A DNA stretch of 55,691 nucleotides from an uncultured virus (IMG/VR IMGVR_UViG_3300046747_000409) (IMGVR_UViG_3300046747_000409); one strand, 5' to 3'. Shown: positions 13,208 through 55,691, numbered from the stretch's first letter. The notes: generated by a model not told the origin, from the sequence alone. Numbers and translations are program-made.

Positions 13208-13977
13208 CCACGCCCTTGATGCTCTCCGACCTGCGTGCTGCAGCAGCGCTTTCGGCCGCGGCGTACCTGCACAGTGCGACGCACATGGATGAATGCATCA
13301 GCCCGTTCGGCTGGCGCGTCCACGACGACATCCAGCGCGACAGCAACCGGGTGCTGATCTGCTTCAACGACATCCTCAGCGTCGCTGCCATCGTCTTCCG
13401 CGGCTCGGCGAATCGCCAGAACTGGCTGGAGAACCTGGACGCGCGCTTGTATCGAGCGGAGGACGGAGGCAGCACGCACTACGGCTTCACCGAGGAGTAC
13501 CTCGCGCTCCATGCGGAGGTGCAGGAGCGCTTCAACCTCCTGATGGAGGATCGCCGGTACCCGAGCTTACTGGTGACTGGCCACAGCCTGGGCGGGGCGC
13601 TCGCCTGCTTGTGCGCGTACCGTCTCCGCACCGCGCTCCCGAGCCCCGAACTCCGGGTCATCACGTTTGGTCAGCCACGCGTCGGGACCATGTACTGGCA
13701 GAGCATGTATAACGCCTGCATCCCGAACACGCTCCGGGTGGTGCATGCGTACGACGACGTGCCCCTGCTTCCAGGCGTCCCTTTCCATCACGTCGGCACG
13801 TTGCTGCACCTGGACAGCCAAGGGCGCGAGATCAGCGCCCCCGGCCGCTGGTGCGTCGCCATGCTGCAGTGGATCCGCGGCGTGTTCCGTTACCCGAAGG
13901 CAGGGGTGCTCGATCACTTACTGCCGTCTTATATCACCACGATTAACAAGATGAGTCCAACATGGTCGACGAAGTAA
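13204..13977 (+). CDS. class 3 lipase (alpha/beta hydrolase)
   Basis: VFRGS, HYGF, TGHSLGGALA, TFGQPRVG, RVVHAYDDVPLLP, DH..PSY. Confidence 0.9.
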   Translation: MTTPLMLSDLRAAAALSAAAYLHSATHMDECISPFGWRVHDDIQRDSNRVLICFNDILSVAAIVFRGSANRQNWLENLDARLYRAEDGGSTHYGFTEEYLALHAEVQERFNLLMEDRRYPSLLVTGHSLGGALACLCAYRLRTALPSPELRVITFGQPRVGTMYWQSMYNACIPNTLRVVHAYDDVPLLPGVPFHHVGTLLHLDSQGREISAPGRWCVAMLQWIRGVFRYPKAGVLDHLLPSYITTINKMSPTWSTK

Positions 13978-27974: not shown

Positions 27975-27977
27975 AAT
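27921..27977 (+). promoter_or_regulatory. putative RHH operator repeats and -10 box of the RHH-capsid fusion gene
   Basis: GATAGCAC (27921), GCTAGCAC (27930), palindrome TGCTAGCA (27944-27951); TAAAAT (27972-27977) 7 nt before ATG 27985. Confidence 0.55.
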
Positions 27978-27984
27978 GGATGCC

Positions 27985-28716
27985 ATGAGCGACCAATCTG
28001 ACAAGGCATCCATCCTGCTCCGCATGACCGTCGATCGACGTGCTCGGATCCAGGAGATCGCTTCCGCCGCAGGCATGAGCGTCAACGCGTACATGCTGAA
28101 GGCCGTGGACATGGTCGCTCCGTTCGGACCTACCATGAGTGACACTCCCCCGACCATTCAACCCAACGACCTTGGTGATCTCGATCCGGCTAATTTCAAG
28201 ACGGTTGAAGACGCGATGCAGGGCGACGTACGCCTGGAGGAGATCAAAGATTTCAGGTTGTACGACACCCAGTTCCATCTGAATCCATACCAGTGGCCGA
28301 AGGGTATGATGGACAAGCTCTTGGCTGCCGAGCCCCCACCTGTGTACCTGTTCAAGCTGCCGAACATCGCGGGAGGTCGAGCATTTAGCAACATGGATGC
28401 ACCAGGGTGCTTGTTCTGGCCAAGGCGAATGCTGGTGCACCGAGTCGAATTGATTGCAGACCGTCCTTTGCCCAAGGAGATGCTGCGTCAATTATCGATG
28501 CGCTTCGTCGTCGGCGAGAAACCATGTGGGGAGTCATCCCTGACCACGCTGCCGGAAATCAGCGGAATCGCCAACTCTTGGGCGCTCACGGTGGCCAACG
28601 TGTGGCTCCCCTCTGTCCAGCATTTCTCCGTGGAGTTGCTGACAGGCGGGTTGTGGTTGGGCGAGATCGAGTGGCGCTGTACCTTGGTAGGATCGTTTTA
28701 CAGGGAAATCCTCTAG
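27985..28716 (+). CDS. ribbon-helix-helix domain fused to a full-length diverged copy of the putative major capsid protein
   Basis: SILLRMTVDRRARIQEIASAAGMSVNAYML (RHH); then DAMQGDVRLEEI..LYDTQ, FSNMDAPGCLFWPRR, RFVVGEK, VWLPSVQHF, GSFYREIL colinear with 34850..35428. Confidence 0.8.
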   Translation: MSDQSDKASILLRMTVDRRARIQEIASAAGMSVNAYMLKAVDMVAPFGPTMSDTPPTIQPNDLGDLDPANFKTVEDAMQGDVRLEEIKDFRLYDTQFHLNPYQWPKGMMDKLLAAEPPPVYLFKLPNIAGGRAFSNMDAPGCLFWPRRMLVHRVELIADRPLPKEMLRQLSMRFVVGEKPCGESSLTTLPEISGIANSWALTVANVWLPSVQHFSVELLTGGLWLGEIEWRCTLVGSFYREIL

Positions 28717-29184: not shown

Positions 29185-30549
29185 ATGCTCGCCCAAGGCA
29201 ACGTCCCTGTTTCGTATAGCACCCTCCCCGATGGGATGAAGGGTACCGACGCCACCGTTGCCTTGATGGCGAAGATGGCGATGGGTATCTACGGCGCTCG
29301 ATCGACCAAAATCCGCGCTCTGGCGATCAACATCCTGACCGCCGCCCGGGTGCCCGAGAAGAACTACACGGCCGAGATGGTCGCGATCCATAACTGGGTC
29401 CGCGACAACATCCGCTACACGCGCGACGTGGCCGGACAGGAGACTCTCCTGCATCCGGAGGAGCTCGCGTTCAACTCGAAAGCCGGCGACTGTGACGATA
29501 AGAGCATGCTGGAAGTGGCGCTCTTGGGGGCCGTGGGCATCACCACGCGCTTCATCACCATCGGCCTGACCCCCTACAATTACAGCCACGTCTACCTGGA
29601 AGCCAATCCAACCGGCAACCAGTGGATCCCGCTCGACCCGATCATGAAGGGCAAGCCAGCCGGCTGGGAAGCCCCCGCCAGCCGAGTGAAATTGCGCAAG
29701 GCCTACCCGATCAACGCCTCCGAGGAAGTTCACATGAACGGTCACAACTTGAATGGCGTGCGCGGCATGGCCGGACTCCGCGGCCTCGGCTACGTCGGCG
29801 ACCCTCGCGTGGTCTCGTTCCTGGAAGAGGAACCGGCCCCTGAGCGCAACAACGACCCCTACGTCGTGATGGACTCCTTCCTCGACCAGGACGCGCCGAT
29901 CGAACAGATCAGCCGCAACGCCCCGGCGTTCCCACAGCAGGACGTCAGTCGCATGCGCCCCGCCGTCGCTCACCAGCTGCGCCCGAAATTGGGCCGCATC
30001 GGGGCGGACGAGGCTGCACGTCGCTCGGCGATCGACGACCTGAATTACAACGACACCGAATCAGCCGCGTTCAACCCGATGGACGGCCTGAGCGGCCCCT
30101 ACGGCATTCTGCACCCGGATCAGCTGGCCGAAATGGGCGACGTGATGGCCCAGCAGCAGGTTCGTCCGAACATGCAGCGCCCGGTACTGGCGCAGACGCC
30201 TGAGGGCGTCGACATGCTGTTCACCCGGCCGAACATGATCGCCCGCTTCGACAAGAGCGACCATGTCGTCTTCCGCGGCATGTACGCCCTGAATGAGAAG
30301 CCACCTATCCGCCGCGTTGGCAATTTCGCCGGCCTGAGTGGTGTGTTCGGTGTTCGTCAGGCTCCTCGCCACCAGGGGATGATGCCCGCTCGCTCCCTGA
30401 GCGGACCCGGCATGGCCGAATTGGCCGACCTGGGTGACGATGTAGTCCCTGCTCCTGTTCAAGTTGCTGCCCCTGCCTCGAAGCTGCCGTTGCTCGCCCT
30501 GGCTCTTGCCGGTGTGGGCCTGTATCTCCTGAGCCAGAAGAAAAAGTAA
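29185..30549 (+). CDS. transglutaminase-like cysteine protease domain, long linker and C-terminal membrane anchor
   Basis: NWVRDNIRY..D, GDCDD (Cys), SHVY (His), WIPLDP (Asp); ends SKLPLLALALAGVGLYLLSQKKK. Confidence 0.8.
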   Translation: MLAQGNVPVSYSTLPDGMKGTDATVALMAKMAMGIYGARSTKIRALAINILTAARVPEKNYTAEMVAIHNWVRDNIRYTRDVAGQETLLHPEELAFNSKAGDCDDKSMLEVALLGAVGITTRFITIGLTPYNYSHVYLEANPTGNQWIPLDPIMKGKPAGWEAPASRVKLRKAYPINASEEVHMNGHNLNGVRGMAGLRGLGYVGDPRVVSFLEEEPAPERNNDPYVVMDSFLDQDAPIEQISRNAPAFPQQDVSRMRPAVAHQLRPKLGRIGADEAARRSAIDDLNYNDTESAAFNPMDGLSGPYGILHPDQLAEMGDVMAQQQVRPNMQRPVLAQTPEGVDMLFTRPNMIARFDKSDHVVFRGMYALNEKPPIRRVGNFAGLSGVFGVRQAPRHQGMMPARSLSGPGMAELADLGDDVVPAPVQVAAPASKLPLLALALAGVGLYLLSQKKK

Positions 30550-30577
30550 CAGATCCTTCCCACTGAGTGAGATCACC

Positions 30578-31168
30578 ATGGCCTTCGTCCTCGCCCCTCG
30601 CTACGCTAAGAGCTACAACTTCAACCCACGCGGTTCCGCGACGGCCACCGTCCGGATCGCCGGTCGTAATCCGTTCGAGGGCGGCGTGCCGGTGCGGATG
30701 AAGGCCCCGACCACGTTCCTGCCCCTGGGCGGGTTCCGGGACAACATGCCGTTCGGCAACCTCGCTGAAGGCGCTCCGACCGCCGCTTCGGGTTCCGCTG
30801 CTTCCTGGTGGGGCAAGCCGAACCAGCTCGCCGGCGGCATGGGCGGCCTGGGTGACGATGCTTCAGCTCCGTCCAGCCCGAGCTGGCTGGATCAGCTGGT
30901 GAGTGGTGTGACTGCCATCGCCGTACCCTCGGTGAACGCCCTGGTGGGCGCTCGCATCAACACGCTGTACGGCACGCCCGCCACCGCCGTACCGACCACG
31001 AACGCCGTGCCGCTTCCAACCTCCACGATCGCTCAGCTCCCGGTCGGCAGTCAGATGCCGGCGGCCTACATGCAGCAAGCGACCTCCAGCAAGCTGCCGA
31101 TCATCCTGGTCGGCGCCGGTGTGGTTGGTCTCCTGGCCGTCTACATGATGACCCGCAAGAAGCGCTAA
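30578..31168 (+). CDS. tail-anchored putative virion membrane protein
   Basis: LAGGMGGLGDD motif; ends SKLPIILVGAGVVGLLAVYMMTRKKR. Confidence 0.7.
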   Translation: MAFVLAPRYAKSYNFNPRGSATATVRIAGRNPFEGGVPVRMKAPTTFLPLGGFRDNMPFGNLAEGAPTAASGSAASWWGKPNQLAGGMGGLGDDASAPSSPSWLDQLVSGVTAIAVPSVNALVGARINTLYGTPATAVPTTNAVPLPTSTIAQLPVGSQMPAAYMQQATSSKLPIILVGAGVVGLLAVYMMTRKKR

Positions 31169-31198
31169 GACTCCCGACCGCTCCCTCACGAGAACACC

Positions 31199-31900
31199 AT
31201 GCGCATCATCCCCAGTCGTAACCATGTGATGGCCGCCGAGCGAATCCCGGCCGCATATCGTCCGTCGAATCAGGCGCGGCTGGAACCAGCTCGTGCCTCG
31301 AATCCGTCGCTGGCTGAGGCTGATGCGTTCATGCCCGAGAGCAGTGAGCTCCGCTATGGCAACAGCCGTGGCGACAATGGGCTGAGCCTGCGCTACGACA
31401 TGCACGCGCCGTGGGATGAGCGGAGCCACAAGCGCTGGGGCAAATCGGCCGAGCAGCGTCTTCCTTCCGCGCAGCCCGTCCCCCTCACCACCGAGATGAC
31501 CAACATCACCGGTGCCCCTCCCCAGCAACTGCCGTCCGCACAGGCGCAGCTGCTCACCACCCCCATCGTCCCCGCGGACGTATCAGGACTGGGATTCATG
31601 GCACAAGCACGTCGTCTCCCTTCAGGCATGCGCCACGTTTCTGGCACCCCGATGACGGGCATGCACACGCCGGTCATCCAGAGCCTGCGCCGTCCGACCG
31701 GGGTGCTTCTGCGCGGGCCTGTCGACAGTGTCATCCCGCACTCGACCATCCAGGCTGTCCCTCCGGCCACGATGGTGTTCCGCGTCATGCCTCGCGCCAT
31801 GTCGGGCCTCGGTGCGCTTGATACGCCGTCGCTGTGGCTCGCCGGCGGCGCTATCGTTGGGCTGTTCCTCCTCATGCGTAATCGCCAGCCCGCTCGCTAA
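31199..31900 (+). CDS. tail-anchored putative virion membrane protein
   Basis: VSGLG and MSGLG; C-terminal TM plus basic tail. Confidence 0.7.
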   Translation: MRIIPSRNHVMAAERIPAAYRPSNQARLEPARASNPSLAEADAFMPESSELRYGNSRGDNGLSLRYDMHAPWDERSHKRWGKSAEQRLPSAQPVPLTTEMTNITGAPPQQLPSAQAQLLTTPIVPADVSGLGFMAQARRLPSGMRHVSGTPMTGMHTPVIQSLRRPTGVLLRGPVDSVIPHSTIQAVPPATMVFRVMPRAMSGLGALDTPSLWLAGGAIVGLFLLMRNRQPAR

Positions 31901-31930
31901 TACCTCTTCGCTGAACTGTAGGAAACCACC

Positions 31931-32455
31931 ATGAGCCGCACCGACTTCACCCAAGAGATTGATGGCGCCTTCCAGAGCCGCAACCTCGGGCAGCGCCACT
32001 ACTCCGAGATCGCGCGCTCCGGCAACGGCAACATGCGCACCGATCTCGCCGAGGATCTGGCCGACTACCAAGAACTGGCAGGCCTCGGTGAATCGGTCGA
32101 GGAGCTGAGCCCGCAAGAGTCAGCCCTCATCGATCAGCAGGGCGCCACCGGCGTGGCCCAGATCCAGACGCTGGTGTGGCCGAAGACGGGCCAGATCCCT
32201 CCGTTCGCCACCAAGCCCGGCATGGTTTGGCTGCGCAAGCGCGTGGTCACCGGCGCACGCAAGCCGGGCGGCCTCCGCCTCGCCAAGTCGACCTGGGTCC
32301 AGGTCTCGAAGGCTCGCCTGCAGGAGCTGCGCAACAGCGGCGCCATGAACGGCATGGGCGCGTTCGACGTCAGCACGATGGGTCTTCCTGCCATCCTCGG
32401 CATCGGCGCCGTGGTCGGTTTGGTCCTGTTCAAGACCGTCGGCAAGAAGGGCTAA
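31931..32455 (+). CDS. tail-anchored putative virion membrane protein
   Basis: LAGLG and MNGMG; C-terminal TM plus KTVGKKG. Confidence 0.7.
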   Translation: MSRTDFTQEIDGAFQSRNLGQRHYSEIARSGNGNMRTDLAEDLADYQELAGLGESVEELSPQESALIDQQGATGVAQIQTLVWPKTGQIPPFATKPGMVWLRKRVVTGARKPGGLRLAKSTWVQVSKARLQELRNSGAMNGMGAFDVSTMGLPAILGIGAVVGLVLFKTVGKKG

Positions 32456-32461
32456 GCTCCC

Positions 32462-32872
32462 ATGCGTCGGCTTCCTGATGGCAGCGTGTGGGATCCAGCC
32501 ACCGGTACGGTCTACGACACCAACCCCAACCACGCGCAGATGGCGCGCGCGGCCGAGCTGCATCGTCGCCAGCGCAACCCCATCCCGAATCGCGGCCAGC
32601 ACATCGAAACGGTCGTGCAGGCGCGGTTGAACGATGGTAATCAGCAGGTGCTCCTGCAGCCCGGTCAACGTTCCCTCGCAGTCGATCCGTTCGGCACCGG
32701 CATGTCCGAGGAGTCGATGGATCGTGACCGCGCCATGCAGCAGAGCATGGGCATTCTGCCGAACATGAGCGACATGTCGAAGAAGCTGCTCCTCACGGGC
32801 CTGCTGGTGGCGGCTGCCGCCGCGGCGGTGTGGGTGAACACCAAGATGAGCGGGAAGTCGAGCTCGAAGTGA
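32462..32872 (+). CDS. tail-anchored putative virion membrane protein
   Basis: RRQRNP; C-terminal LLLTGLLVAAAAAAVWV plus basic tail. Confidence 0.65.
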   Translation: MRRLPDGSVWDPATGTVYDTNPNHAQMARAAELHRRQRNPIPNRGQHIETVVQARLNDGNQQVLLQPGQRSLAVDPFGTGMSEESMDRDRAMQQSMGILPNMSDMSKKLLLTGLLVAAAAAAVWVNTKMSGKSSSK

Positions 32873-33465
32873 GCCGACGCCGCACACGTCGTAACGCACC
32901 CTGGGGCTCCATGTCGTCGGAGACCGAACGGTCAGGCAATCCCTCCCGCTCAAACAAGCGGGGCAAGAGCGGTGTCTACCTCGGCAAGCTCGACGAGATC
33001 GTGCTCGAAGTCGGCGGGAAGACCTACCACTTGGAGTCGAAAGACCTACACGTCGCCTGGGTGCAGTCGTCCCAGGATCTCGCCCTGGCGTTCAAGAGCA
33101 AAGCCAAGCCGGGCACGGTCGACGCCAAGTCTGTCGCCATCCACCAGAAGTTCCACGCGTCACCGATGTCGAAGGCCGTGGCGTACGAATGGCCCACGCC
33201 TGTCGGCCGCCTGACGCAGAAGGGCCTGATCCGCTCGCTGACCTATGTCGTGCCTCCGAACGTGAAGAGCCCGACGAAGCATGGATTCAAGTGGGTGCAC
33301 GCGTTTGGTGATCACGGCGAAAGCGGCCACGGCCCCATGCGTAACGGCGAGAAGGTCTACCCGGATCGCTTGAAGCCCGCGCTGTGCGAGGACGAAAAGG
33401 GCAATTACTTCGTCTGCCGCCGCCCTGGCAACAAATACAAGGTCACGGATTGGATTTATTGGTGA
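32869..33465 (+). CDS. basic hypothetical protein (putative virion)
   Basis: GTG overlaps upstream stop; Arg-rich N-terminus. Confidence 0.65.
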   Translation: MSRRRTRRNAPWGSMSSETERSGNPSRSNKRGKSGVYLGKLDEIVLEVGGKTYHLESKDLHVAWVQSSQDLALAFKSKAKPGTVDAKSVAIHQKFHASPMSKAVAYEWPTPVGRLTQKGLIRSLTYVVPPNVKSPTKHGFKWVHAFGDHGESGHGPMRNGEKVYPDRLKPALCEDEKGNYFVCRRPGNKYKVTDWIYW

Positions 33466-33472
33466 TCGCGCG

Positions 33473-33505
33473 CCTCGTGTAGAGGAGCATGTGCTCTACA
33501 CGAGG
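33473..33505. terminator. perfect 12-bp hairpin after the operon end
   Basis: CCTCGTGTAGAG-N9-CTCTACACGAGG followed by TCGTTTGTGTT. Confidence 0.5.
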
Positions 33506-33574
33506 TCGTTTGTGTTGAGTGAATAGCAAAAACACCTCAAACAACGCCCGCGCTCTCGCCTCGCGAATAGGTAC

Positions 33575-33602
33575 TTGACGTGAGGGTCGGACAGGTTTCC
33601 AT
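33575..33602 (+). promoter_or_regulatory. late promoter-like motif (copy 2) with a -35 box
   Basis: TTGACG (33575) then TCGGACAGGTTTCCAT (33587-33602). Confidence 0.5.
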
Positions 33603-33704
33603 CTTGGTATCAGGCTCTCAGAAGAGTTTGAGCAGCACGAGCGAGTGGTCCCTCAAGGATGCCCGCAAGGCTTACTGACCATCTACCAGCCCCGTTGGCC
33701 AGTC

Positions 33705-34709
33705 ATGCTGCTTACCCTGAGCAATCCCCTGCACTTGGCCGTCGTCGGCAATCCACACCGTCCCTCCCGCTCCCCGAGCAAAGGCAAAGCCATGGCCCGC
33801 CATCGCCGCAAAGCACGTCGTCTCTCCCACAAGGCTCGCAAGTCTGCCAAGCGCAGCTCGCACCGTTTCGTCAAGCGCGGCCTCAAGGTCCACGTGAAGC
33901 GTTACGCTGGCTTCCGCAAGAAAGTGCGCGGCATCCGCGGCACCGGCCGTAAGGGCACCGTGACCATCCGCTCGAAGCGCGGCAAGTTCCTGGGCACGAA
34001 CCCACGTCGTCATCGCCGGAACCCAGCCATCGTGGCGACGGTGAAAGACCTGTTGGTCACCCCGGTCACCAGCTTGCCGAAGAGCCTCCCGGCCATCTTC
34101 AAGGGCTCGATGGTCAAGAACGTCGGCTTCGCTGCCGGTGGTGCGATCGTCGCACTGGTTGCTGGTAATCAGCTCCAGAAGTTGGCGATGCCGCTGCTCG
34201 CCCGTATCCCAGGCGTGTCGGCTGCAATGGGCGGCTCGATCGTCCAGCGCGTCGTCGGTGCCAGCTTCGCCCTGCTCTCGGGCTCGGTTGTCGCCAAGTT
34301 CGGCCTGAAGGACGCTGCCTCACGCAACGCCTTCGTGACCGGTGCCGCCGCTGCCGCCTTGATCGAAGCGATCTTCCCAGGTCGTATCGCTCAGACGCTG
34401 GCGAACGTTCCCGTGATCGGTGGCTTCCTGGCCCCAGCCGCTTCGCCAGTGAATGGCCTCCGTGGCCTGTTCGGTACCGATGACCTCGCCGCCTACGTGG
34501 ACGCTCCGTCCTACCAGGGCACCGGCGCCTACGTGGACGCTCCGTCCTACCAGGGCACCGGCGCGTACGTCGAAGCTCCGAGCTATCAGGGCACCGCCGG
34601 TCTGGCTGGCCCGAATGATGCCGTCGCCGGGATGGGCTACGCTGGCGACCAGCTGGCTGGCAACCTCGAAGGCATGGGCTCCAACATGTCGAGCCATCTC
34701 GACAGCTAA
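33705..34709 (+). CDS. Arg/Lys-rich core-like protein with hydrophobic middle and repeat-containing acidic tail (alternative start 33792)
   Basis: MARHRRKARR... basic region with NP motifs; Ala/Gly hydrophobic helices; 3x AYV(D/E)APSYQGT; LRGL, VAGMG, LEGMG; lies directly upstream of the capsid-like gene. Confidence 0.7.
   Translation: MLLTLSNPLHLAVVGNPHRPSRSPSKGKAMARHRRKARRLSHKARKSAKRSSHRFVKRGLKVHVKRYAGFRKKVRGIRGTGRKGTVTIRSKRGKFLGTNPRRHRRNPAIVATVKDLLVTPVTSLPKSLPAIFKGSMVKNVGFAAGGAIVALVAGNQLQKLAMPLLARIPGVSAAMGGSIVQRVVGASFALLSGSVVAKFGLKDAASRNAFVTGAAAAALIEAIFPGRIAQTLANVPVIGGFLAPAASPVNGLRGLFGTDDLAAYVDAPSYQGTGAYVDAPSYQGTGAYVEAPSYQGTAGLAGPNDAVAGMGYAGDQLAGNLEGMGSNMSSHLDS
34491..34598 (+). repeat. 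in-frame 36-bp tandem repeat x3
   Basis: GCCTACGTGGACGCTCCGTCCTACCAGGGCACCGGC twice exact, third copy diverged mainly at synonymous positions. Confidence 0.95.
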
Positions 34710-34849: not shown

Positions 34850-35428
34850 ATGCCTGTTTATCGTCAAGCATCCGATGCTGCCCAGGGCGACGTCAAGCTC
34901 GAAGCCATCACGCAGCCCATCTACGACTCGCAGACCATCGCCACCGGCGGGTCGACGACCTCGTTCTTCCAGAACCCAGGCGGCCGTAGCCGCCTCTTCA
35001 CGAACGTCGAGACCGCTGGCTCGCTGACGTGGCCCAAGCGCTACTCGGTGAAGGCGTTCCGTATCGTTCCTTCCCCGTCCACGCTGGCTCAGAACCTCGT
35101 GAACTTCTACGCCAACGGTTACTTCGTGTTCCGCGTCGGTGAGAAGGACTACTTCACCGCTCCGCTGCACCTCGTCACCCCTGGTTGCGGCTTGCTGGTG
35201 TGGAACATCATCGGCCTCGCGGCTCCGCTGGCTCCCGCCACCGGTACCAACACCGCCACCAATGGTGAGTCGAACCACCGCAACATCTACATCCTGCAGC
35301 ACGCCGTCTGGCTGCCGTCGGTGCAGAACTTCCGCGGCATCATCGACATGGCCGCGACCTTCGCCACCAGCGCGTCGATCGACGTGTGGGTGTACCTCGA
35401 AGGCGAATTGTTCCGCGAGATCCAATAA
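34850..35428 (+). CDS. putative major capsid protein (single jelly-roll-like)
   Basis: GGAG RBS, biased codon use, strong terminator after; beta-rich 192 aa with QPIYD, FFQ, TNVETAG.L, FRVGEK, QNF, LEGELFR pattern; sits in the structural module. Confidence 0.6.
   Translation: MPVYRQASDAAQGDVKLEAITQPIYDSQTIATGGSTTSFFQNPGGRSRLFTNVETAGSLTWPKRYSVKAFRIVPSPSTLAQNLVNFYANGYFVFRVGEKDYFTAPLHLVTPGCGLLVWNIIGLAAPLAPATGTNTATNGESNHRNIYILQHAVWLPSVQNFRGIIDMAATFATSASIDVWVYLEGELFREIQ
35399..35428 (+). repeat. left copy of a 30-bp direct repeat (3' end of capsid gene)
   Basis: GAAGGCGAATTGTTCCGCGAGATCCAATAA = EGELFREIQ*. Confidence 0.85.
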
Positions 35429-35463: not shown

Positions 35464-35494
35464 GAACCCCGGGCCATCCCGGGGTTCTTCGTTT
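35464..35494 (+). terminator. intrinsic terminator of the capsid-like gene
   Basis: GAACCCCGGG-CCAT-CCCGGGGTTC then TTCGTTT. Confidence 0.75.
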
Positions 35495-36711
35495 CAAGCC
35501 CGCCAATGCGTTGCCGCTGCCTCTCGTTTACGACGCAAATGCACTGAGGTCGGATCACCGTAGAGCGCTCTCATAATGACCGTTTGCTGCTCGTGTGTCC
35601 GGATACATCCACGCCAGCACCCCAGCTTTCCGCAATGGCTCACGTGGAAGTATTTGGCCAGCGTCAGCCCGGGTACGAGCGTTTGGCAGTACGCCTCGAA
35701 CTGGTCAACGATTTTGGCCGTCCCTGAGAGATACGGGGTACCCTCTCCTCGTACGTAAACGCAACCATCACCGTCCACACACCCACGCCAGAAGTCAGCG
35801 CTGAGTAGCGCGACATCAGGAGCACTGGCGGTAGATGTTTTGTTGGGGAGCACGTTCAGATGCATAAGCCGCTGGCACATATATTCAGATGTCGGCTCGT
35901 ACACCACGAAAGGACGCATGATGCCATCCTCCCAATTGGCGGCCTCCCCCTCCTGAATTGCGTGGTTGGATTCGAGCCAATCGCGCAGCTTTTCTAGCAT
36001 CTCGCGATCTTTGGCTGCTAATCGGACGTGAAGGCGATGACTCGGCCTCCCCTCTGCTCGATGAATGCATCCATCAGCGATGATGAACCCGAGAAAGTAC
36101 ATAGCCGTCGCGTCGAGCACGTCGAACGCGGTGGCTCGAATAAAAAAGCGTTGAGGTTTGGCGATGTACTTGCGCTCTGCTTGCTCGCGGAACATCGCGT
36201 CACTGCCCCCATGCGCAGGTCGGTGTAGTCCTTGCTTGGTGAGGGAGTGGGCTACCCCCGGCTGAGACATGCCTATCTGCTTTGAAATAGCGTTCATGCT
36301 GAGGCCGTTCCCGTCAGACCATAGTGCTGCTATTTGAAGGTCTCTCTCGGTAATGACTGGGTTCTTAGGGACGTACACCTCCTTGGGGTTGTGTCCTCCT
36401 GGCGCGCGTGTGCGCAGATTGTGGCGATCAAGGATGTTGTAGATGGTCTTCTTGCAGATGCCGAAGCGTTTCGGTAGGTTGCGCTCCTTGGCGACATACG
36501 CAGCGATGATTTCCTGTTCTTTTTCAGGTGGGGTCTGCGGCTTACCTCCCTTCTTTTTTCGGATCTGAATGCCTGCTCGCCTGAGAACGGATAGCACCGC
36601 ATCTTGATGAGTACCTACACCGGCCGCTATCTCGTCCTGATGCTCGCCGGCGAGATACCTAGTCCGCACTTCAACTTGTTGATCGAGGGAGAGTTTCTGT
36701 TTTCCAGACAT
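35494..36711 (-). CDS. LAGLIDADG homing-endonuclease-like protein with N-terminal HTH repeats
   Basis: YFLGFIIADGCI and FWRGCVDGDGCV motifs, LRRK end; three HTH-like segments (QDEIAAGVG, PKRFGICKKTIYNIL, SMNAISKQIG). Confidence 0.85.
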   Translation of the reverse strand: MSGKQKLSLDQQVEVRTRYLAGEHQDEIAAGVGTHQDAVLSVLRRAGIQIRKKKGGKPQTPPEKEQEIIAAYVAKERNLPKRFGICKKTIYNILDRHNLRTRAPGGHNPKEVYVPKNPVITERDLQIAALWSDGNGLSMNAISKQIGMSQPGVAHSLTKQGLHRPAHGGSDAMFREQAERKYIAKPQRFFIRATAFDVLDATAMYFLGFIIADGCIHRAEGRPSHRLHVRLAAKDREMLEKLRDWLESNHAIQEGEAANWEDGIMRPFVVYEPTSEYMCQRLMHLNVLPNKTSTASAPDVALLSADFWRGCVDGDGCVYVRGEGTPYLSGTAKIVDQFEAYCQTLVPGLTLAKYFHVSHCGKLGCWRGCIRTHEQQTVIMRALYGDPTSVHLRRKREAAATHWRA

Positions 36712-36712
36712 G

Positions 36713-37588
36713 TTATTTTTTCCAGACGAGCACATGCTCGCAAAGAGGTGACGTCGCGAGCGGCCCGCTCAGGTACATGGCCCAGTGGTACGTCAGGGGC
36801 AACCCGAGAATCGATTCAACCAGCGTGATGGCATTTCCGGTGAGCTTTAAATGAGTGCCTCGCCTGAAGACGTCGGCGATGTTGAGCGCGAAGTGGCCGC
36901 CAGGGCGAAGTAGTCGGATGCTATGCTCGATCACAGGGAAGTAGAATCCCGTGCACCACGCATCGTATTCAGGGAAACGGGCGAATGACTGGGAAGGCTC
37001 CTCCGCATAGCGTTCGGTATCGAAATAAGGAGGGCTCGTGAATATGAGATCGAACGAGCTATCCATGGCCGGTAGAACATTCTGTGCCTCGGCGGTAACT
37101 ACGCGATGACGGCTCGTGTCCCCGTACCGCGCAATCAATGTAGCGTATCCAGGGGCGAGTGCGGTGTTGGGATCAATTCCGGTATACGATCGGGCGGAGG
37201 ATCCAGCGATGGCTGCTACCAATCGATCTCCCCACCCTGCGCAAGGGTCGAGGACGTCAGCACCTCCAAGCTCATCCATGATGGAACGAGCAATGGCGGG
37301 ATTGAACTGCGAAAGGAGCCGGGCTGAAAGCCTGTTCACCTCGCCCTCACTTTCAGGGGACACCCCGCCTCGATGCTTGGCACGCTGACGAGGCTCGAAC
37401 TGGAAATAGCCAGACGCCGGGTTGGTGCTAACCAGCGGGGTCAACATCGGCATGACCGTAGAAGGTGCCCCCTCCCCTCCTCGAAAGCGAGGCCGCCCCG
37501 ACATCCAGCACGTCTCCGGAGGTAGGTCACGCAACAAGTCAAAGGCGTCGTCGGCGTCGGCGAGCGTCCAGGGGTTTGGGAGCGTCAT
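36713..37588 (-). CDS. amino (N4-C/N6-A) DNA methyltransferase
   Basis: VLDPCAGWGDRL (motif I), YTGIDPN, FDLIFTSPPYFDTERY (motif IV). Confidence 0.85.
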   Translation of the reverse strand: MTLPNPWTLADADDAFDLLRDLPPETCWMSGRPRFRGGEGAPSTVMPMLTPLVSTNPASGYFQFEPRQRAKHRGGVSPESEGEVNRLSARLLSQFNPAIARSIMDELGGADVLDPCAGWGDRLVAAIAGSSARSYTGIDPNTALAPGYATLIARYGDTSRHRVVTAEAQNVLPAMDSSFDLIFTSPPYFDTERYAEEPSQSFARFPEYDAWCTGFYFPVIEHSIRLLRPGGHFALNIADVFRRGTHLKLTGNAITLVESILGLPLTYHWAMYLSGPLATSPLCEHVLVWKK

Positions 37589-37778: not shown

Positions 37779-38384
37779 ATGAACATGCGCAATCCCGACC
37801 CACGAGCCCAACGTGGTGGTAGTTACTTCCAAAACGGAGTTCGTCCTCCTCAGACCTTCCTGCCGCTGGGTCACCTCGGCGCTGAAGTCGCCCCTGGTTC
37901 GGACGGTGCCGCTGAACAGCAGGCCATGTTCGGTCTGCCCCCACAGGACTTCATCAACGCCCTGTACGACATCTTCGGCAAGTACCCACGCACCAACACG
38001 ATTCCCTACGCCAACGGCTTCACGCTGGCCGGTGCCACGGGTCCGACTCCGCAGCTGGGCGCCAACGCCACGGGCCGCCCATCGGTCAAGACCTCGGCCG
38101 ACGCAGCGCACATCATCACGCACATCACCGGCGCCTCGACCGGGCCGTACTCGATCTTCATGCGCAGCGACTCCTCGGATCGCCAATACATGACCATCCC
38201 GGTACACAGCGACGCGATGGTGGGCACGGCTGAACGGCCGTTCCCGTTGCCGAAGCCGATGTTGCTCGCCCCGAACACCACGCTGAGCTTCGACCTGACC
38301 GACCTCTCGGGTCAGGTGAACGACGTGTGGTTCACGCTGTGGGGCTTCAAGGTCTACCGCCGCCAGTACGCCGCCGCCGGTTAA
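37779..38384 (+). CDS. second putative single jelly-roll capsid protein
   Basis: Beta-rich; SADAAHII, SSDRQYM..PV, GTAERPFPLPKP, TLSFDLTDL, FTLWGFK; adjacent to the first capsid-like gene once the insert is removed. Confidence 0.55.
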   Translation: MNMRNPDPRAQRGGSYFQNGVRPPQTFLPLGHLGAEVAPGSDGAAEQQAMFGLPPQDFINALYDIFGKYPRTNTIPYANGFTLAGATGPTPQLGANATGRPSVKTSADAAHIITHITGASTGPYSIFMRSDSSDRQYMTIPVHSDAMVGTAERPFPLPKPMLLAPNTTLSFDLTDLSGQVNDVWFTLWGFKVYRRQYAAAG

Positions 38385-40756: not shown

Positions 40757-42385
40757 ATGGCCGTCACGTACAACGTCGCCACCATCACCGCGCCCTTTTC
40801 CACAGGGGCGCAAGGCCTCGTTGACGCGATCACGATCTGGCTGACGAGCATCGGTGCCACCACCCTGGTCTCGATGGACGTGTGGCGTGAAGACAGCCCC
40901 ACGTACGCCGGCGTGCAGCGGGCGCGGATCTGCTATGCCACCGGACGCGTGGATGCGGTGAACTACCAGTGCACGTTGTTCCGCTCCGGGGGCGCTGCAG
41001 CGGCCACCGCCGGGATCGACGCGGCGCAGCAGTTCAACACCTTGATGGCCACCCCGGCGGCGCTCGTCCCGGTGTTCACGTTCGACGTGACGGACCTGCG
41101 CGGATCGGCTAGCGGCCTGACCTTCATCGGCATGCTGGCGAACGTCACCAGCGCCTCGTCGATCGGCATGAGTGCGCTCATCGCCGAACCGACCACCCCC
41201 ATCGCCCCGGGCGCGAGCGGTGCGTCGACCTTCTACTCCCCTTCAGGTGTGGCGCTGTTCAGTGGCACCATCACGAACCTTGCTGCCGACGACTGGCCCG
41301 AAGGGCAACGCAACTACGCCGTGATCGACACGGTCACCGGCGGATGGATCGGACTTGCCTCCTGCTGCTCGGACGATCTGACGCCGCTGGTGCCCCCGAC
41401 GCTGACGACCACGACTGGGTTTAACGGACCGGCCTACGTCTCGCAGACACCCCCGATCATCCCCGGTGCGCCGACCACGACGACGAACTCGTCTACGACC
41501 ACCACGACCCCGCCACCAAACCCACTGTGCAACGGCCTGGATGTGTGTATCGACGGGCGGACCCCGCAGCTGGGGACCATCGTCCGGGACAACCAAAGGC
41601 TGTTGGAGTACAACAGCTGGTCGTCATTCGCAGCATTTGAAGGTCACGCGGGACTGACCATTACCCAATTCGTGACGTACTGCGCAACGGCCTGCATGAC
41701 GGTAGGGGACGACGTCTGGGCGTGCGCATCCGGGTTGTCCGCTGCTGACCGAGAAGTGATCGCGACAATCAGCGGATATGACTGTGACAATGTCCTCGTG
41801 AGCACGCAGTCTGAAGTACTCCTCACGGTCACCGGTCCGGAGACGATCTGTGGTAAGGTAACGTTCGACCCTCCGGGTGCCCCCGCGGCCCATTACACCC
41901 CCAAGATCACGGTGTCGGCCGCGCTCGCGGCCTGCTTCCCTGAGATTGAGACCGTTGCCTTGTGCATGGATGCCGTAGCAATCTCACTCACCGATTCGAC
42001 GGGTTGCTCATACTGCGCTTCCGGCGGCGGGGTCGGGAACTCATTCTTCATGGCAGGACTCCCTGCTCCGTTCGCAGACCCAACGGCGCTCAACTTCGGC
42101 GGAGTAACTCCGGTGGATGACGGCTGTGCGGTCACGTGGTCCGCATCCGAGGGCGGCGCAACGGTGACCCTTGTTATCACCCTCGATGTCACCGGTGTCG
42201 TGCTGTCCACCATACTGACCTCGGATGACGGCGTGGGTGGCATCTGTTCTTGGGAACCCAGCACTCCACCGGTCGGCCCATCGTACAATGGTATCGCGTG
42301 GCAGGTAACCGAATCAGGAGAGGCTATCGTCTTCGATACCCTTCTCACAGGGACGTGCCCTGAAGTCCCCTCCTTGGTGGGATAG
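40757..42385 (+). CDS. putative spike protein 1: shared N-domain, WP.G..CC, Thr/Pro linker, Cys-rich head
   Basis: CYATG, DWPEG, SCC, TTTTNSSTTTTTPPP. Confidence 0.6.
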   Translation: MAVTYNVATITAPFSTGAQGLVDAITIWLTSIGATTLVSMDVWREDSPTYAGVQRARICYATGRVDAVNYQCTLFRSGGAAAATAGIDAAQQFNTLMATPAALVPVFTFDVTDLRGSASGLTFIGMLANVTSASSIGMSALIAEPTTPIAPGASGASTFYSPSGVALFSGTITNLAADDWPEGQRNYAVIDTVTGGWIGLASCCSDDLTPLVPPTLTTTTGFNGPAYVSQTPPIIPGAPTTTTNSSTTTTTPPPNPLCNGLDVCIDGRTPQLGTIVRDNQRLLEYNSWSSFAAFEGHAGLTITQFVTYCATACMTVGDDVWACASGLSAADREVIATISGYDCDNVLVSTQSEVLLTVTGPETICGKVTFDPPGAPAAHYTPKITVSAALAACFPEIETVALCMDAVAISLTDSTGCSYCASGGGVGNSFFMAGLPAPFADPTALNFGGVTPVDDGCAVTWSASEGGATVTLVITLDVTGVVLSTILTSDDGVGGICSWEPSTPPVGPSYNGIAWQVTESGEAIVFDTLLTGTCPEVPSLVG

Positions 42386-42396
42386 GTGCACCACTC

Positions 42397-43497
42397 ATGA
42401 TCACCACCCTCTACACTCAGAATCAGAACGAGAGCCCACTCAGCTTCGCGCAGCGGATCGATGCAGCGTTGTTCCTGCTCGGCCCTATTGGCATCTCGCA
42501 GATCCTGATGCAGCACCGCGACGGGTCGAACGGCAGCGGCCTGCTCTACCTGACGATCATCTACGCCACTGGGGCCGGGATTTCGTTGCGCTCGGTGGCC
42601 TTCCTCGGTACCGCGCTCTCGACCGCGACGACCCAAGCGAACGCCTTCCTGGCCGCCAACCCGACGTACGTCCCGCAGCGCATCTTCGACATCGGCAGCC
42701 AGAACCGTCGCTCCTTGGCACGGGACGTGGTCATGCTGCTCTACGTCGACAGCAGCCTGCCGTCGTGTCAGTCATTCAACGGCTTGATCCCGGTGCAGTC
42801 GCTCACCGACATCGCTGCCGGTGCTGCCGGGCAAGCGTGGCAGTTGACGGCGGACGGCAACAAGGGCCCGTATCCGGTCATCAACAAGCAGCAAGGCAAC
42901 TGGCCTGCAGGAGGCACGGGGTGGGCATTTGCTGATCCGCTGACGTGCGTGCTGAACGGCTACCCGAGCTGCTGTGCCGGTGTTCCTGCGACTACGTCGT
43001 CCACGTCGTCTACGACCTCGACCACGACCACATCAACGAGTAGCACCAGCACGACTACGACAACCAGCTCAAGTACAACGACAACGCCTCCTCCGGGGGC
43101 CTGCCCGCAATGTGTCACTCCTGAGATCATCCCAGGCTCGGTGACAGTCGATTTTGGGTCTACGTTCTTGGTCTCCAACGGCGGCATCCCCGCATGTAAC
43201 GCCCCCTCGTGGAGCCCGGGAACGCTCGTACTCTCGATCACTGGAACAGGCACTAGTTGTCTGTTCCAGTTCGGTACCCAAGGCGACAACCAGAAGTACG
43301 CCTTCCTGATTTGGGACGGCAGTACTTGGGTTGTCGCCGTCTTCACGGCCGGCGTCCCACAACCAGACACCACCATCTACGCGGTGTGGACCGGACCAAG
43401 CACACCCTGTGATCCACGCGGAGAATACACCTCTCCGACCACACCTTCCGCTTGCGATGGCGGGTCGACGCCAGCGGCGACGGTCACGGTATCGTAA
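42397..43497 (+). CDS. putative spike protein 2 with Thr/Ser stalk
   Basis: IYATG, AFLAANP, NWPAG, SCC, ~32-residue T/S run, Cys-rich head. Confidence 0.6.
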   Translation: MITTLYTQNQNESPLSFAQRIDAALFLLGPIGISQILMQHRDGSNGSGLLYLTIIYATGAGISLRSVAFLGTALSTATTQANAFLAANPTYVPQRIFDIGSQNRRSLARDVVMLLYVDSSLPSCQSFNGLIPVQSLTDIAAGAAGQAWQLTADGNKGPYPVINKQQGNWPAGGTGWAFADPLTCVLNGYPSCCAGVPATTSSTSSTTSTTTTSTSSTSTTTTTSSSTTTTPPPGACPQCVTPEIIPGSVTVDFGSTFLVSNGGIPACNAPSWSPGTLVLSITGTGTSCLFQFGTQGDNQKYAFLIWDGSTWVVAVFTAGVPQPDTTIYAVWTGPSTPCDPRGEYTSPTTPSACDGGSTPAATVTVS

Positions 43498-43502
43498 CCA
43501 CC

Positions 43503-45065
43503 ATGTACCTCGCCACCTCCTTCCAGTTCCGCTCTGACATCCAAGGCGACGGCACCGTCGTTGCTTCTCGTCTGAACACCTTCTTGCTGTACAACCCCAC
43601 GGTGACTCCGGTGGCGTTCATCCCGCACTGGCGTGAAGGAACCAAAGGAGCACGCACCCTCATCGGCACGCTGATCTATCAGCTCGGTGGTCCGCTGACG
43701 CGCTGGTGGGTCCAGGAGTTCGCATCGAACGCCCTCACACCCGAGGATCAGATCACGGCGTACCTCGCGGCCAATCCCACGTCAGTGCCCGCGCTGATCC
43801 AGGAGATCGGTAACCGCGATTCCAACCCGCAGTGGCGTCGCCTCGTGCTCTTCACCGCCTCGACCAGCTTCATCGGCCAGGGCGCGGAGTCGGCGGCGAT
43901 CAACGGCGCTCCGGATGCCCCGGTCGACATCGGCGACTACGGCACGATGTCCGATCCGGATGACAGCAACCGGCCGCCCGTCGACGCGCTCAATCTCGGC
44001 AACACGCAATGGCCGGTGGGCGCCACCGCCCCGATCATTCAGCAGGTGCTCAACGACCAGAACCTGAACGCCTTGGCGGGCATCGCCCCGTGCTGCTTCG
44101 GTGGTGCGCTTACACCGGCCGAGCCTCTGGATGTCCTGCTCTTCAGCGGCTGCATTCCAGGCTCGATCGTGGCGACGACGGACACGACCACCTCGTCGAC
44201 GTCCACCACCACGACGCAGACGTTCACGACCACCACGTCGACCAGTACGTCATCGACCTCCTCTACGTCCTCGACGTCGACCACGAGCACGACGAGTACG
44301 ACCACCACGTCGACCTCCACGACCACAACCACGAGCTCCACGACCACGACCACGTCGACCACGTCGACCAGCACATCCACGACCACGAGCACAACGACGT
44401 CTACGACCACGACGACCTCAAGCACGACCACGACCACCGCCGGGCTGTGCGACATGTACGGGTTCACGGCGGAGTGGAATTGCGATACCGAGGACTGGGA
44501 CGTGGCGCTCGCCGGTCTGCCCGCTATCGGCGTCCCGTGTGGCAGCAACACCGGATGGGGTGAACTCATTGGCCCATGCCTGCTGCAGAACCACATCTAC
44601 GTTCCGACCGGAGATCCGGAGCCTGATCCGGGCACGCCGATCGGCTTCGACACTAGCACGTGCTGCGCCATTGATCCGTGCACCGAGGGTCCGGACACAC
44701 TCACGCAGACCACGGTCGTCAGCGGGGGCATCGATTGCCCTACCGGGTGTGACTCGATCACCATTCTCAAGAAGACGGCGTCAACGGCCACGACGGTCAC
44801 GTACTCGATCATCTACATCGCCAACAACAATCCTGACGCCTGCATGTTCTGCGGTCCTGATGGCGTGCTCTACGATGACCCGACCAACACCGCAGCAAGC
44901 TGGATCTGGGACTGTGACGTGGGCGCGTGGACGACCGGCGGCTGGTCTAAGCTCAACACGTCTACGTGCCTCGGTGAGCTCACGTTCTTCACGGGCACCA
45001 CATCACTCTCTACGGGCGTCTGCGGTTATCCGTTCGACGAGACTCAAACGATTACGGTGTCGTGA
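43503..45065 (+). CDS. putative spike protein 3 with long Thr/Ser stalk
   Basis: AYLAANP, QWPVG, PCC, ~88-residue almost pure T/S run, Cys-rich head. Confidence 0.6.
   Translation: MYLATSFQFRSDIQGDGTVVASRLNTFLLYNPTVTPVAFIPHWREGTKGARTLIGTLIYQLGGPLTRWWVQEFASNALTPEDQITAYLAANPTSVPALIQEIGNRDSNPQWRRLVLFTASTSFIGQGAESAAINGAPDAPVDIGDYGTMSDPDDSNRPPVDALNLGNTQWPVGATAPIIQQVLNDQNLNALAGIAPCCFGGALTPAEPLDVLLFSGCIPGSIVATTDTTTSSTSTTTTQTFTTTTSTSTSSTSSTSSTSTTSTTSTTTTSTSTTTTTSSTTTTTSTTSTSTSTTTSTTTSTTTTTSSTTTTTAGLCDMYGFTAEWNCDTEDWDVALAGLPAIGVPCGSNTGWGELIGPCLLQNHIYVPTGDPEPDPGTPIGFDTSTCCAIDPCTEGPDTLTQTTVVSGGIDCPTGCDSITILKKTASTATTVTYSIIYIANNNPDACMFCGPDGVLYDDPTNTAASWIWDCDVGAWTTGGWSKLNTSTCLGELTFFTGTTSLSTGVCGYPFDETQTITVS
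44172..44438 (+). repeat. low-complexity Thr/Ser coding tract
   Basis: Mixed ACC/ACG/TCG/AGC codons. Confidence 0.9.
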
Positions 45066-47165: not shown

Positions 47166-47181
47166 TCGGACAGGGTACCAT
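47166..47181 (+). promoter_or_regulatory. late promoter-like motif (copy 4)
   Basis: TCGGACAGGGTACCAT, 7 nt before ATG 47189. Confidence 0.65.
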
Positions 47182-47188
47182 GGGCGGC

Positions 47189-54303: not shown

Positions 54304-54987
54304 ATGATCATGGCCAAGAAGCTCACCCGCAAGCAGAAGAGCAAGCTCAACAAGGCGAAGTTCCGCGCTTCCCGCAAGAGCCGGGTCCACAAGAAGGCTC
54401 GCCGCCCTGCCAAGAGCCGCGCACGCAAGTCGACCCGCCGGACGACCCGCAAGCCGGTCCGCCGTACCGTCCGTCGTGCCCGGAAGCCATCTCGCCGCGC
54501 TATCGCGGCTCGTGGCCGGAAAGGCGCCCGGATCAAAAAGTTCCGTCATCACCTCCGTTCGCTCGATTACGGCGAATACTCTGCCGCGTCGAACCCACGG
54601 CGTGGCCGGAAGTCCCGTGGTCGTGGCCGTAGTCACCGCCGGAACCCCATGGGCAAGGAACTGCGCGATGGCACGATCATCAGCACGTCGAAAGGCCCTG
54701 GCTGCACCTACGTGTCGCTGACCTCGCCGTACGGTGAGACCCACGAGTACGAAGTGTCAGGCTCGGTCGTTCGTCTGGCCAGCGCCAAGACCTTCGCCGA
54801 AGCCAAGCGGAAGCTGGGCGGCGCGATGCTGCGCTCGATCAACCCGAAGCGCCGCTCGTCGAAGCGTCGGTCGACCAAGTCACGGGCTCGCAAGAGCACC
54901 AAGCGTCGCTCGGTCCGCGGCAAGTCACGTGCACGCAAGAGCACCCGCCGCTCCAGCCGCACCCGTCGTAGCCACGCTCGTCGGTAA
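54304..54987 (+). CDS. protamine/histone-H1-like Arg/Lys-rich protein
   Basis: Extremely basic; repeated KSRARKST; NP motifs (SNPRR, RRNPM, INPKRR). Confidence 0.75.
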   Translation: MIMAKKLTRKQKSKLNKAKFRASRKSRVHKKARRPAKSRARKSTRRTTRKPVRRTVRRARKPSRRAIAARGRKGARIKKFRHHLRSLDYGEYSAASNPRRGRKSRGRGRSHRRNPMGKELRDGTIISTSKGPGCTYVSLTSPYGETHEYEVSGSVVRLASAKTFAEAKRKLGGAMLRSINPKRRSSKRRSTKSRARKSTKRRSVRGKSRARKSTRRSSRTRRSHARR

Positions 54988-54998
54988 TTGAGGTCCAC

Positions 54999-55691
54999 AT
55001 GGCCCGTCGTCGCTCCTCATCGAAGCGCTCCAGCCCGCGCGCAGCACTGATTCGGTCGCTGCGTCGGTCGGCCGAGCTGAGCATGGAGTTCAGCGACGAA
55101 CGGGACAACCTGGATGAACTATCGCTCAAACAACTGCGGAGCCTGAGCAAGAAAATGCGCAATCCTCGTCGCGCCAAGCGGAACTGCGGACGCAACCCCC
55201 ATCACCGGGGGGATTCGGGGGCGTTTACTAAGGAGGAGCGGGAGCTCATCTACCAATGGGTACCTGAGTATAACAACCACTTCATGATCCACAGGGAGCA
55301 CAACACTCCCGGCGTCGATGCGCTCGAACGCAAGTTGCAAAAGCTCAAGAAGCGAGACGCGGTTGCCTGGGGGTCGATTGAGAAGCGACGGTACGCTGCG
55401 ATCAAACGACAGCAGCGCTCGAATCCGTACCGCGAAGACACCTTCTACGCTGACCGGGAGATCCGAAAGGTGAAGAAGGCCAAGCGCTCGAAGCATCGCC
55501 GGCACGCGTCGAAGACGGGCATGAAGGCCGTGCTGGGGCGGATGAACCCACGAGGCAAGGGTCGCTTGCGCACCACCGGGACAGCCGGGGGCAAGTACAC
55601 GCGCTATCTCGAACGCACGGCCCACAAGCCCAAGGCACGAAAGGGTCGCCCTTCGTTCAAGGGCGGTAAACGTGGGGAGTTCCGCGCCTCG
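54999..55691 (+). CDS. basic NP-motif protein (3'-truncated; missing from the ORF track)
   Basis: GAGGT RBS; MARRRSSSKRSS... open to the window end; MRNPRR, GRNPHH, RSNPYR, RMNPRG. Confidence 0.75.
   Translation, partial: MARRRSSSKRSSPRAALIRSLRRSAELSMEFSDERDNLDELSLKQLRSLSKKMRNPRRAKRNCGRNPHHRGDSGAFTKEERELIYQWVPEYNNHFMIHREHNTPGVDALERKLQKLKKRDAVAWGSIEKRRYAAIKRQQRSNPYREDTFYADREIRKVKKAKRSKHRRHASKTGMKAVLGRMNPRGKGRLRTTGTAGGKYTRYLERTAHKPKARKGRPSFKGGKRGEFRAS

Follow-up and report, generated by a model that had tools for sequence, protein, structure and literature searches.

The window analysed here is the whole of a 55,691-nucleotide DNA from an uncultured virus (IMG/VR IMGVR_UViG_3300046747_000409), with positions counted from its first letter. 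Between positions 29185 and 34709, on the plus strand, it carries seven genes that begin with a transglutaminase-fold cysteine enzyme and end directly upstream of a probable major capsid protein gene. A short tag, hydrophobic-x-Gly-(Leu/Met)-Gly (as a pattern, [MLIVF]xG[LM]G), recurs in these genes and, judged by sequence comparison, is real and widely conserved. A first-pass annotation of the region had proposed that a membrane-tethered Cys-His-Asp enzyme is encoded beside particle membrane proteins that repeatedly carry a Gly tag, and that proposal is well supported by the analysis below.

The enzyme gene (29185..30549, plus strand) encodes a 454-residue protein with a domain of about residues 1-180, a low-complexity tail and a C-terminal membrane anchor (residues 434-450 by hydropathy) followed by KKK. 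Its sole Pfam match is PF01841, over residues 57-152 (E 6.4e-12; 46.2 bits against a curated cut-off of 23), and the previously noticed triad is borne out inside that match as Cys103 (29491..29493, in the sequence GDCDD), His135 (29587..29589) and Asp151 (29635..29637), each assigned from alignments. A homologue search found 176 proteins; the figures given for 119 homologues hold among the 120 matches listed, and in these the triad is preserved in 119 of 119. Cys103 and His135 are invariant across an alignment of 110 sequences, and GDCDD surrounds the catalytic Cys in 278 of 311 intein-free sequences. In 14 of 325 enzyme sequences, at least one being a duplicate, an intein immediately precedes the catalytic Cys, and some of these inteins have LAGLIDADG domains (sequences P0048, P0123, P0125, P0127, P0143, P0156, P0160, P0162, P0165, P0168, P0169, P0184, L005 and L074). 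As intein homing makes an intein at an active-site residue an indication of a conserved and needed site, we take this placement as a sign that the active site of the enzyme is conserved and needed. The family is large: a profile-free search matched 3,898 cluster representatives at E 0.001, 1,413 at E 1e-10 or better, not all of which are demonstrably viral, and 85 at 1e-30. A first viral scan with a single protein as query gave 0 loci, no match was found in plasmid sequences, and the enzyme profile had no good match among solved structures (best 3isr, E 0.23).

Tags in the window were counted in an automatic gene set of 7 target genes (1703 residues), 52 upstream genes and 18 downstream genes, with expected counts taken here and below from per-protein shuffles that preserve composition (500 shuffles for the window). 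The target genes contain 8 tags where 0.51 are expected, a count reached by 0 of 500 shuffles. Elsewhere there is 1 tag in the upstream genes (1.5 expected), in gene 1682-2329, and 0 in the downstream genes (1.1 expected); hence the excess over the 1-29 kb genes for which the first-pass annotation had proposed a test is present. The individual motifs listed there also lie where it placed them (residue numbers): LRGLG 198, MDGLS 299, FAGLS 381 and LSGPG 405 in the enzyme; LAGG 84 and MGGLG 88 in gene 30578; VSGLG 128 and MSGLG 201 in gene 31199; LAGLG 49 and MNGMG 139 in gene 31931; and VNGLRGL 269, VAGMG 327 and LEGMG 341 in the gene read from 33645, for which 33705 is the likely start. Genes 32462 and 32911 have no strict match. 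Sites of the form (M/I/L)XGX-G number 11 in the target genes against 2.45 expected. The (M/L)xGG half of the proposed motif did not hold up, (M/L/I)xGG being unenriched both in the target genes (2 against 2.6 expected) and in relatives (22 against 28.8), and [TAP]AAG, the motif of LapG-type proteases, is found 0 times in the target genes (0.59 expected). The pattern was derived from the window proteins themselves, so the out-of-sample tests carry the weight.

Tag counts for neighbours of the enzyme gene omit the window, the cultured phage SSIP-1, seven loci that nearly duplicate others and two with poor matches (L039, L050); genes were called, and anchors found from hydropathy, by simple scripts. 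The tails of the 119 homologues contain 240 tags against 13 in shuffles, and the domain itself 1 against 3.6. Among neighbours of the enzyme gene, tags were enriched at least twofold in 45 of 57 loci of 4 kb or more (pooled, 273 against 61.5), including loci with only 26-40% enzyme identity. Stand-alone enzyme domains make up 38 of 151 non-redundant homologues, which stop within 52 residues of the catalytic His, and loci with a stand-alone, tag-less enzyme still have tagged neighbours (L021, 8 against 0.7; L028, 7 against 0.8; L025, 8 against 1.1). Gly makes up 9.7% of the target proteins. That the tag arose by chance in sequences rich in Gly and low in complexity is of negligible probability, given that the shuffles keep the composition of each protein and that the out-of-sample enrichment is 4- to 18-fold.

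When the 1,603 neighbour proteins were collapsed to 918 families, the tag was concentrated in C-terminally anchored proteins, 52 of 165 such families having it N-terminal of the anchor (67 tags against 4.9). Soluble families had 21 against 11.4, and soluble basic proteins 3 against 1.1. The enzyme domain and the tags thus sit on the same, N-terminal, side of their respective anchors. An unbiased 3-mer scan of the 165 non-redundant anchored proteins ranked GLG first (84 against 15.3) and GMG fourth (19 against 5), with GAG, GSG, GVG, GIG and GFG near expectation, and in the relatives the Leu/Met subset of (M/I/L)XGX-G was found 44 times against 2.8, versus 45 against 25.5 for other residues at that place. 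In anchored proteins 45 of 103 tag sites lie in the first 40 residues. The earlier statement that the sites fall just before the anchor is correct for two window sites; in relatives only 6 of 68 are within 10 residues of it. The residue after the tag is Ala, Asp, Glu or Val, with Pro scarce (1 against 8.9) and Lys likewise (0 against 4.4), and sequence information stops one or two residues past the last tag Gly.

In the enzyme, the tag LRGLG (residues 198-202; 29776..29790) stands directly behind the domain and is followed by a conserved YVGDP. G[LM]G is found in the next 45 residues behind the domain in 54 of 107 tailed homologues (shuffle mean 5.9, maximum 12), and a tag at this place occurs in 12 of 39 unrelated enzyme tail families, that of SSIP-1 gp34 among them. 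On these alignments the tag often marks the seam between enzyme domain and tail, and since it lies at a domain boundary LRGLG is a candidate site at which the enzyme could plausibly release itself. LSGPG (residue 405; 30397..30411), with Pro at the Leu/Met place, is a variant conserved among close homologues. A complex prediction that paired residues 1-180 with the linker of the enzyme (184-215) in trans (score 0.01, mark 0.32) was evidence neither way.

The genes that follow, all on the plus strand, encode mostly anchored proteins. Orthologue alignment and hydropathy define gene 30578..31168 as a 196-residue C-terminally anchored protein, in which the tag MGGLG (30839-30853) is preserved in orthologues behind a spacer of variable length. 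The 233-residue product of 31199..31900, also C-terminally anchored, varies in its middle part among orthologues and carries VSGLG (31580-31594) and MSGLG (31799-31813). Gene 31931..32455 encodes a C-terminally anchored protein of 174 residues in which two tags (32075-32089 and 32345-32359) bracket a basic segment of about 85 residues; both are found in 6 of the 6 orthologues shown, counting GIG variants. A small anchored protein (32462..32872) has FGTG instead of the strict tag, and G[LM]G appears in all 3 of the orthologues shown. Gene 32911..33465 encodes a conserved soluble protein of 184 residues that co-occurs with the enzyme gene (18 relatives in the loci compared); searches of Pfam, PHROG and NCBIfam gave no assignment and Atlas no usable match. 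Directly upstream of the capsid gene, 33705..34709 (likely start 33705; alignment and hydropathy) encodes a 334-residue protein with a basic N-terminal arm bounded by Asn-Pro, three hydrophobic segments and the C-terminal tags VAGMG (34623-34637) and LEGMG (34665-34679). Between the arm and these tags are three tandem 12-residue units, AYV[DE]APSYQGT[GA] (34491..34598), which contain a Tyr-x-Gly-Thr-Gly variant of the tag, and the start of the enzyme tail (G-x-YVxxPSY in distant homologues) resembles the repeat sequence GAYVDAPSY. Further downstream, in gene 37779, LPLGHLG (37860..37880, plus strand) closes an N-terminal leader that varies between orthologues. G[LM]G stands at this place in four orthologues; the leaders, unrelated in length and sequence, finish with the tag where a conserved core begins, and one paralogue that has no leader also lacks the tag.

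The capsid gene itself (34850..35428, plus strand) encodes 192 residues and has no tag. A model built from a 44-sequence alignment is all-beta, with a predicted local distance difference test score (pLDDT) of 80.5, versus 34 for a single-sequence fold. Its top three structural matches among 48,161 chains were SPV1 (Z 8.8, root-mean-square deviation (rmsd) 4.0, 146 aligned), HHIV-2 (Z 8.8, rmsd 3.4, 112 aligned) and HCIV-1 (Z 8.1, rmsd 3.4, 129 aligned), and P23-77 VP17 gave Z 7.1; Z values of 8-9 exceed background only to a moderate degree. These are viruses with single jelly-roll capsid proteins and an internal membrane, and the likeness to them is structural, without a sequence match: sequence searches of the Protein Data Bank, Pfam and phages found none, hhalign gave a probability of at most 3% against SSIP-1 gp45/gp46 and P23-77 VP16, and Foldseek with the model gave no match at E 0.001 or better. 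Atlas pointed to PM2 P2 families, as a lead only (0.78). The protein is thus a probable single jelly-roll capsid protein, the predicted structure giving moderate but coherent support. Its family has 57 members among enzyme-anchored loci and window proteins, counting paralogues. One diverged paralogue lies in the early region of the window (27976-28716), fused behind a NikA-like DNA-binding segment, and L003, L070, L002 and L036 have extra copies.

The window has 62% GC and dense genes, nearly all on the plus strand, and looks phage-like. In Pfam searches its first 29 kb encode an SNF2 helicase, a serine recombinase, a ParB-like protein, a lipase, a nucleotide kinase, thymidylate synthase and dihydrofolate reductase, and the scanned open reading frames (ORFs) matched no tail, portal or terminase family in Pfam or PHROGs. 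The longest sequence containing the cluster of the enzyme is 117.7 kb, and therefore the window is probably about half of one genome; within that half, Pfam found no packaging ATPase among 53 scanned ORFs. The best explanation of these data is a large tailless prokaryotic virus with single jelly-roll capsid proteins, probably containing a membrane; an internal lipid membrane is suggested by the anchored proteins and by analogy with SSIP-1, which is membrane-containing (PMC6356626). The enzyme gene had been called the first late gene, which rests on gene content and was not confirmed: a scan found no promoter-like site upstream of it and ran at chance level. As to hosts, a 250-residue form of the enzyme is present on L109, L111 and L113, contigs in Planctomycetota bins. 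On one of them a 33705-like gene and a capsid gene accompany the enzyme in a full particle module; on the other two the enzyme lies among cellular genes, possibly in decayed proviruses. The bin hints at the host of that sub-lineage only.

SSIP-1 gives the enzyme its only match in a cultured phage: gp34, annotated as structural and given no function in GenBank, is 36.6% identical over 121 residues (E 3e-10) and has the same layout of domain, tag (ARGMG), tail and C-terminal anchor. The pattern xG[LM]G is also present in gp36 (AQGMG), gp37 (NRGLG), gp52 (RAGLG) and gp53 (DPGMG). The SSIP-1 genome is 44 kb, versus about 118 kb for the longest sequence with the cluster of the window enzyme, and its capsid proteins resemble the window capsid protein weakly (hhalign probability 2-3%).

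Two proteases served for comparison. The adenovirus protease AVP (adenain) cleaves at (M/I/L)XGG-X and (M/I/L)XGX-G and uses His54, Glu71 and Cys122 (PMC4246237). Like adenain, the window virus encodes a viral cysteine enzyme and a short Gly consensus on many internal particle proteins, here candidate substrates; (M/I/L)XGX-G describes 6 of the 8 window tags, and in gene 31931 a basic piece lies between two sites. Unlike adenain, the enzyme has the order Cys103-His135-Asp151 and belongs to PF01841. The tag requires Leu/Met where adenain takes any residue and may begin with Val or Phe, and the (M/I/L)XGG-X form is not enriched. The tagged proteins are anchored in a membrane, the enzyme is in many cases tethered as well, the host is a prokaryote, and cutting is here a prediction. 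Hence the adenovirus-like description stands for the logic and falls for the details, and membership in the adenain family is ruled out by the catalytic order, the sole Pfam match and the unenriched XGG form. The nearest biochemical precedent is LapG/DvhG, a proven transglutaminase-like protease with an acidic calcium site (D316-C317-E318) flanking the catalytic Cys, which releases a tethered protein sequence-specifically at a short motif of small residues (PMC13090378). The window enzyme shares the Cys-His-Asp order, and its D102-C103-D104 would match the acidic-Cys-acidic calcium site. It differs in being encoded in a viral particle operon with many candidate substrates, in its C-terminal anchor and in lacking enrichment of [T/A/P]AAG. 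The NCBIfam LapG model NF045674 does not match it, and the homologue P0064 matches weakly (E 0.011; 14.9 bits against a cut-off of 320), so that membership in LapG/BTLCP is ruled out by this score and the missing motif enrichment.

On balance we favor, as somewhat the more probable account, a LapG-like maturation protease that cuts at the tag during particle assembly, by adenovirus-like logic although not an adenain. A cysteine enzyme of the transglutaminase fold, active and held at the particle membrane by its C-terminal anchor, would cut at hydrophobic-x-Gly-(Leu/Met)-Gly, likeliest after the last Gly and less likely before it. Pro depletion is expected at the P1' place of a cleavage site, which in this reading accounts for the scarcity of Pro after the last tag Gly. 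Cutting would free the catalytic domain of the enzyme itself. It would also remove leaders, scaffolding segments and basic pieces from anchored proteins of many unrelated kinds, the tags of these proteins being presumably on the enzyme's side of the anchors. The leader ends in gene 37779 and the bracketed basic segment in gene 31931 fit such cut sites. The word protease is only inferred because PF01841 also includes transamidases and cell-wall isopeptidases (PMC10318531), and several observations weigh against cleavage. No tag stands behind the domain in 27 of 39 enzyme tail families, and 27 of 107 tailed enzymes have no G[LM]G anywhere in the tail. The enzyme is present in all 8 of the near-complete records retrieved with the capsid protein, which is not independent evidence of linkage, most of those records being already known through the enzyme. 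The 12-residue repeats of gene 33705 are conserved as whole units in 11 of the 11 orthologues shown, tags occur in tandem (up to four ALPGMG-type units in P0029), and among comparison genomes, all too small to be clean controls for a dependence of tag on enzyme, SSIP-1 is weakly enriched (4 against 1.4, reached by 18 of 300 shuffles, with one match inside the enzyme domain) and IN93 has 4 strict tags (1.4 expected; 15 of 300 shuffles). Unlike the window virus, IN93 and P23-77 have no match to PF01841; P23-77 has 0 strict tags (1.9 expected), and each of the two has GLG in one small anchored protein.

The last of these points would be natural if the tag were a docking or sorting motif that binds the inner capsid face or an assembly factor and recruits membrane proteins, the enzyme included, which would then act elsewhere. 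The tandem copies and whole-unit repeats fit binding, or else a binding motif exposed by cutting; the longer unit common to the enzyme tail and the 33705 repeats suggests a common partner, and one-sided placement suits binding as well. Docking nevertheless leaves unexplained why the tag lies at the end point of stand-alone enzymes and why it closes the variable leaders of 37779 orthologues, and apart from the repeats the motif spans no more than five or six residues; we consider it unlikely, though deserving of attention. Acyl transfer, which is native to the fold (PMC10318531), would instead allow a sortase-like transpeptidase or transamidase that passes the acyl half to a Lys or N-terminal Gly amine of a particle protein or lipid, giving a stitched particle. 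The frequent tag forms LPGMG and MPGMG are in register with the sortase signal LPxTG, and the layout of the substrates resembles the tag, anchor and basic tail of sorting signals. Yet sorting-signal models (sortase/CTERM) in NCBIfam matched none of the 14 window proteins searched, target proteins included, at E 0.1; the tag is usually distant from the anchor; and among named models that of the protease LapG comes closest to a homologue, if weakly. Together these points make stitching improbable. Slightly fainter still is the prospect of a virion-borne amidase or isopeptidase that attacks the host envelope on entry or exit, with the tag an unrelated flexible or membrane-surface hinge. The archaeal viral pseudomurein isopeptidases PeiW and PeiP share the fold (PMC10318531), and a distant homologue shows weak similarity (E 7e-4) to a protein of this kind from Methanobacterium virus Drs3; however, Pfam found no wall-binding domain in the window enzyme, and a hinge would not be expected to select Leu and Met so sharply, with other GxG triplets near expectation.

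A second tag, basic-x-Asn-Pro ([RK]x?NP), marks other proteins of these loci. Soluble basic proteins carry an excess of it (64 against 8.1; 24 of 124 families), as do proteins whose anchor lies elsewhere than at the C-terminus (30 against 8.4), and in C-terminally anchored proteins it is at expectation (13 against 13.7). In the window it is found in two very basic proteins (genes 54304 and 55083; 54304..55691, plus strand) and on the basic arm of 33705 (33705-34070), and beyond it in L003 (6819-9980) and in SSIP-1 gp41, gp43 and gp44. It often bounds modules in the manner of polyprotein linkers; no second protease candidate was found. The Gly and Asn-Pro tags appear to mark different protein classes and perhaps opposite membrane faces. 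By eye, the gene before the capsid gene in the window (33705-34709), in SSIP-1 (gp44) and in P23-77 (VP15) has Asn-Pro pairs followed by hydrophobic segments, and these may represent one ancient membrane-protein role.

Several other features of the window and its relatives were seen. Directly behind the capsid gene, on the minus strand (35494-37588), is a cassette of a LAGLIDADG-type endonuclease and a DNA methyltransferase, and related genes occupy the corresponding place in L058 and L004. Three paralogous Thr-/Cys-rich proteins and a 1779-residue repeat-rich protein (40757-45065 and 47180-52519), which have no family match, are probably spikes or fibres. The lipase (13117-13977) is of class 3 (E 1e-28) and may matter to a membrane-containing virus. 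A 242-residue viral protein (2336-3064) contains a Ribosome modulation factor domain (PF04957; E 5e-10, exceeding the cut-off), and gene 5324-6352 weakly matches KOW (NusG/Spt5-like). In L082 (15891-20397, minus strand) there are about 14 tandem small Gly-rich ORFs that start with M[RKN]YPVG and end with GTV[EAS]GR(R).

Taken more broadly, we give about even chances that the loci represent tailless prokaryotic viruses with single jelly-roll capsids, forming an undescribed, widespread group that uses a two-tag code, in which a transglutaminase-fold enzyme cuts the first tag, or cuts it and re-ligates it as a sortase would. A literature search that covered few subscription papers, passages of PMC11161782, PMC6356626 and PMC12429598 included, yielded no description of this system. 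Protease-driven maturation is established in adenoviruses (PMC4246237) and listed for polinton-type eukaryotic viruses (PMC11161782), and in the available main text of a survey of prokaryotic double jelly-roll viruses the words protease and transglutaminase occur nowhere (PMC5894146). If the favored reading is true, adenovirus-like maturation logic arose independently, with another enzyme fold, in a lineage for which we found no maturation protease reported in the literature searched. If the tag is cut, tailless prokaryotic viruses would have their own version of maturation built on a different enzyme fold, a large viral branch of PF01841 would gain a function, and a simple sequence rule would be at hand for recognizing particle proteins among unannotated genes.

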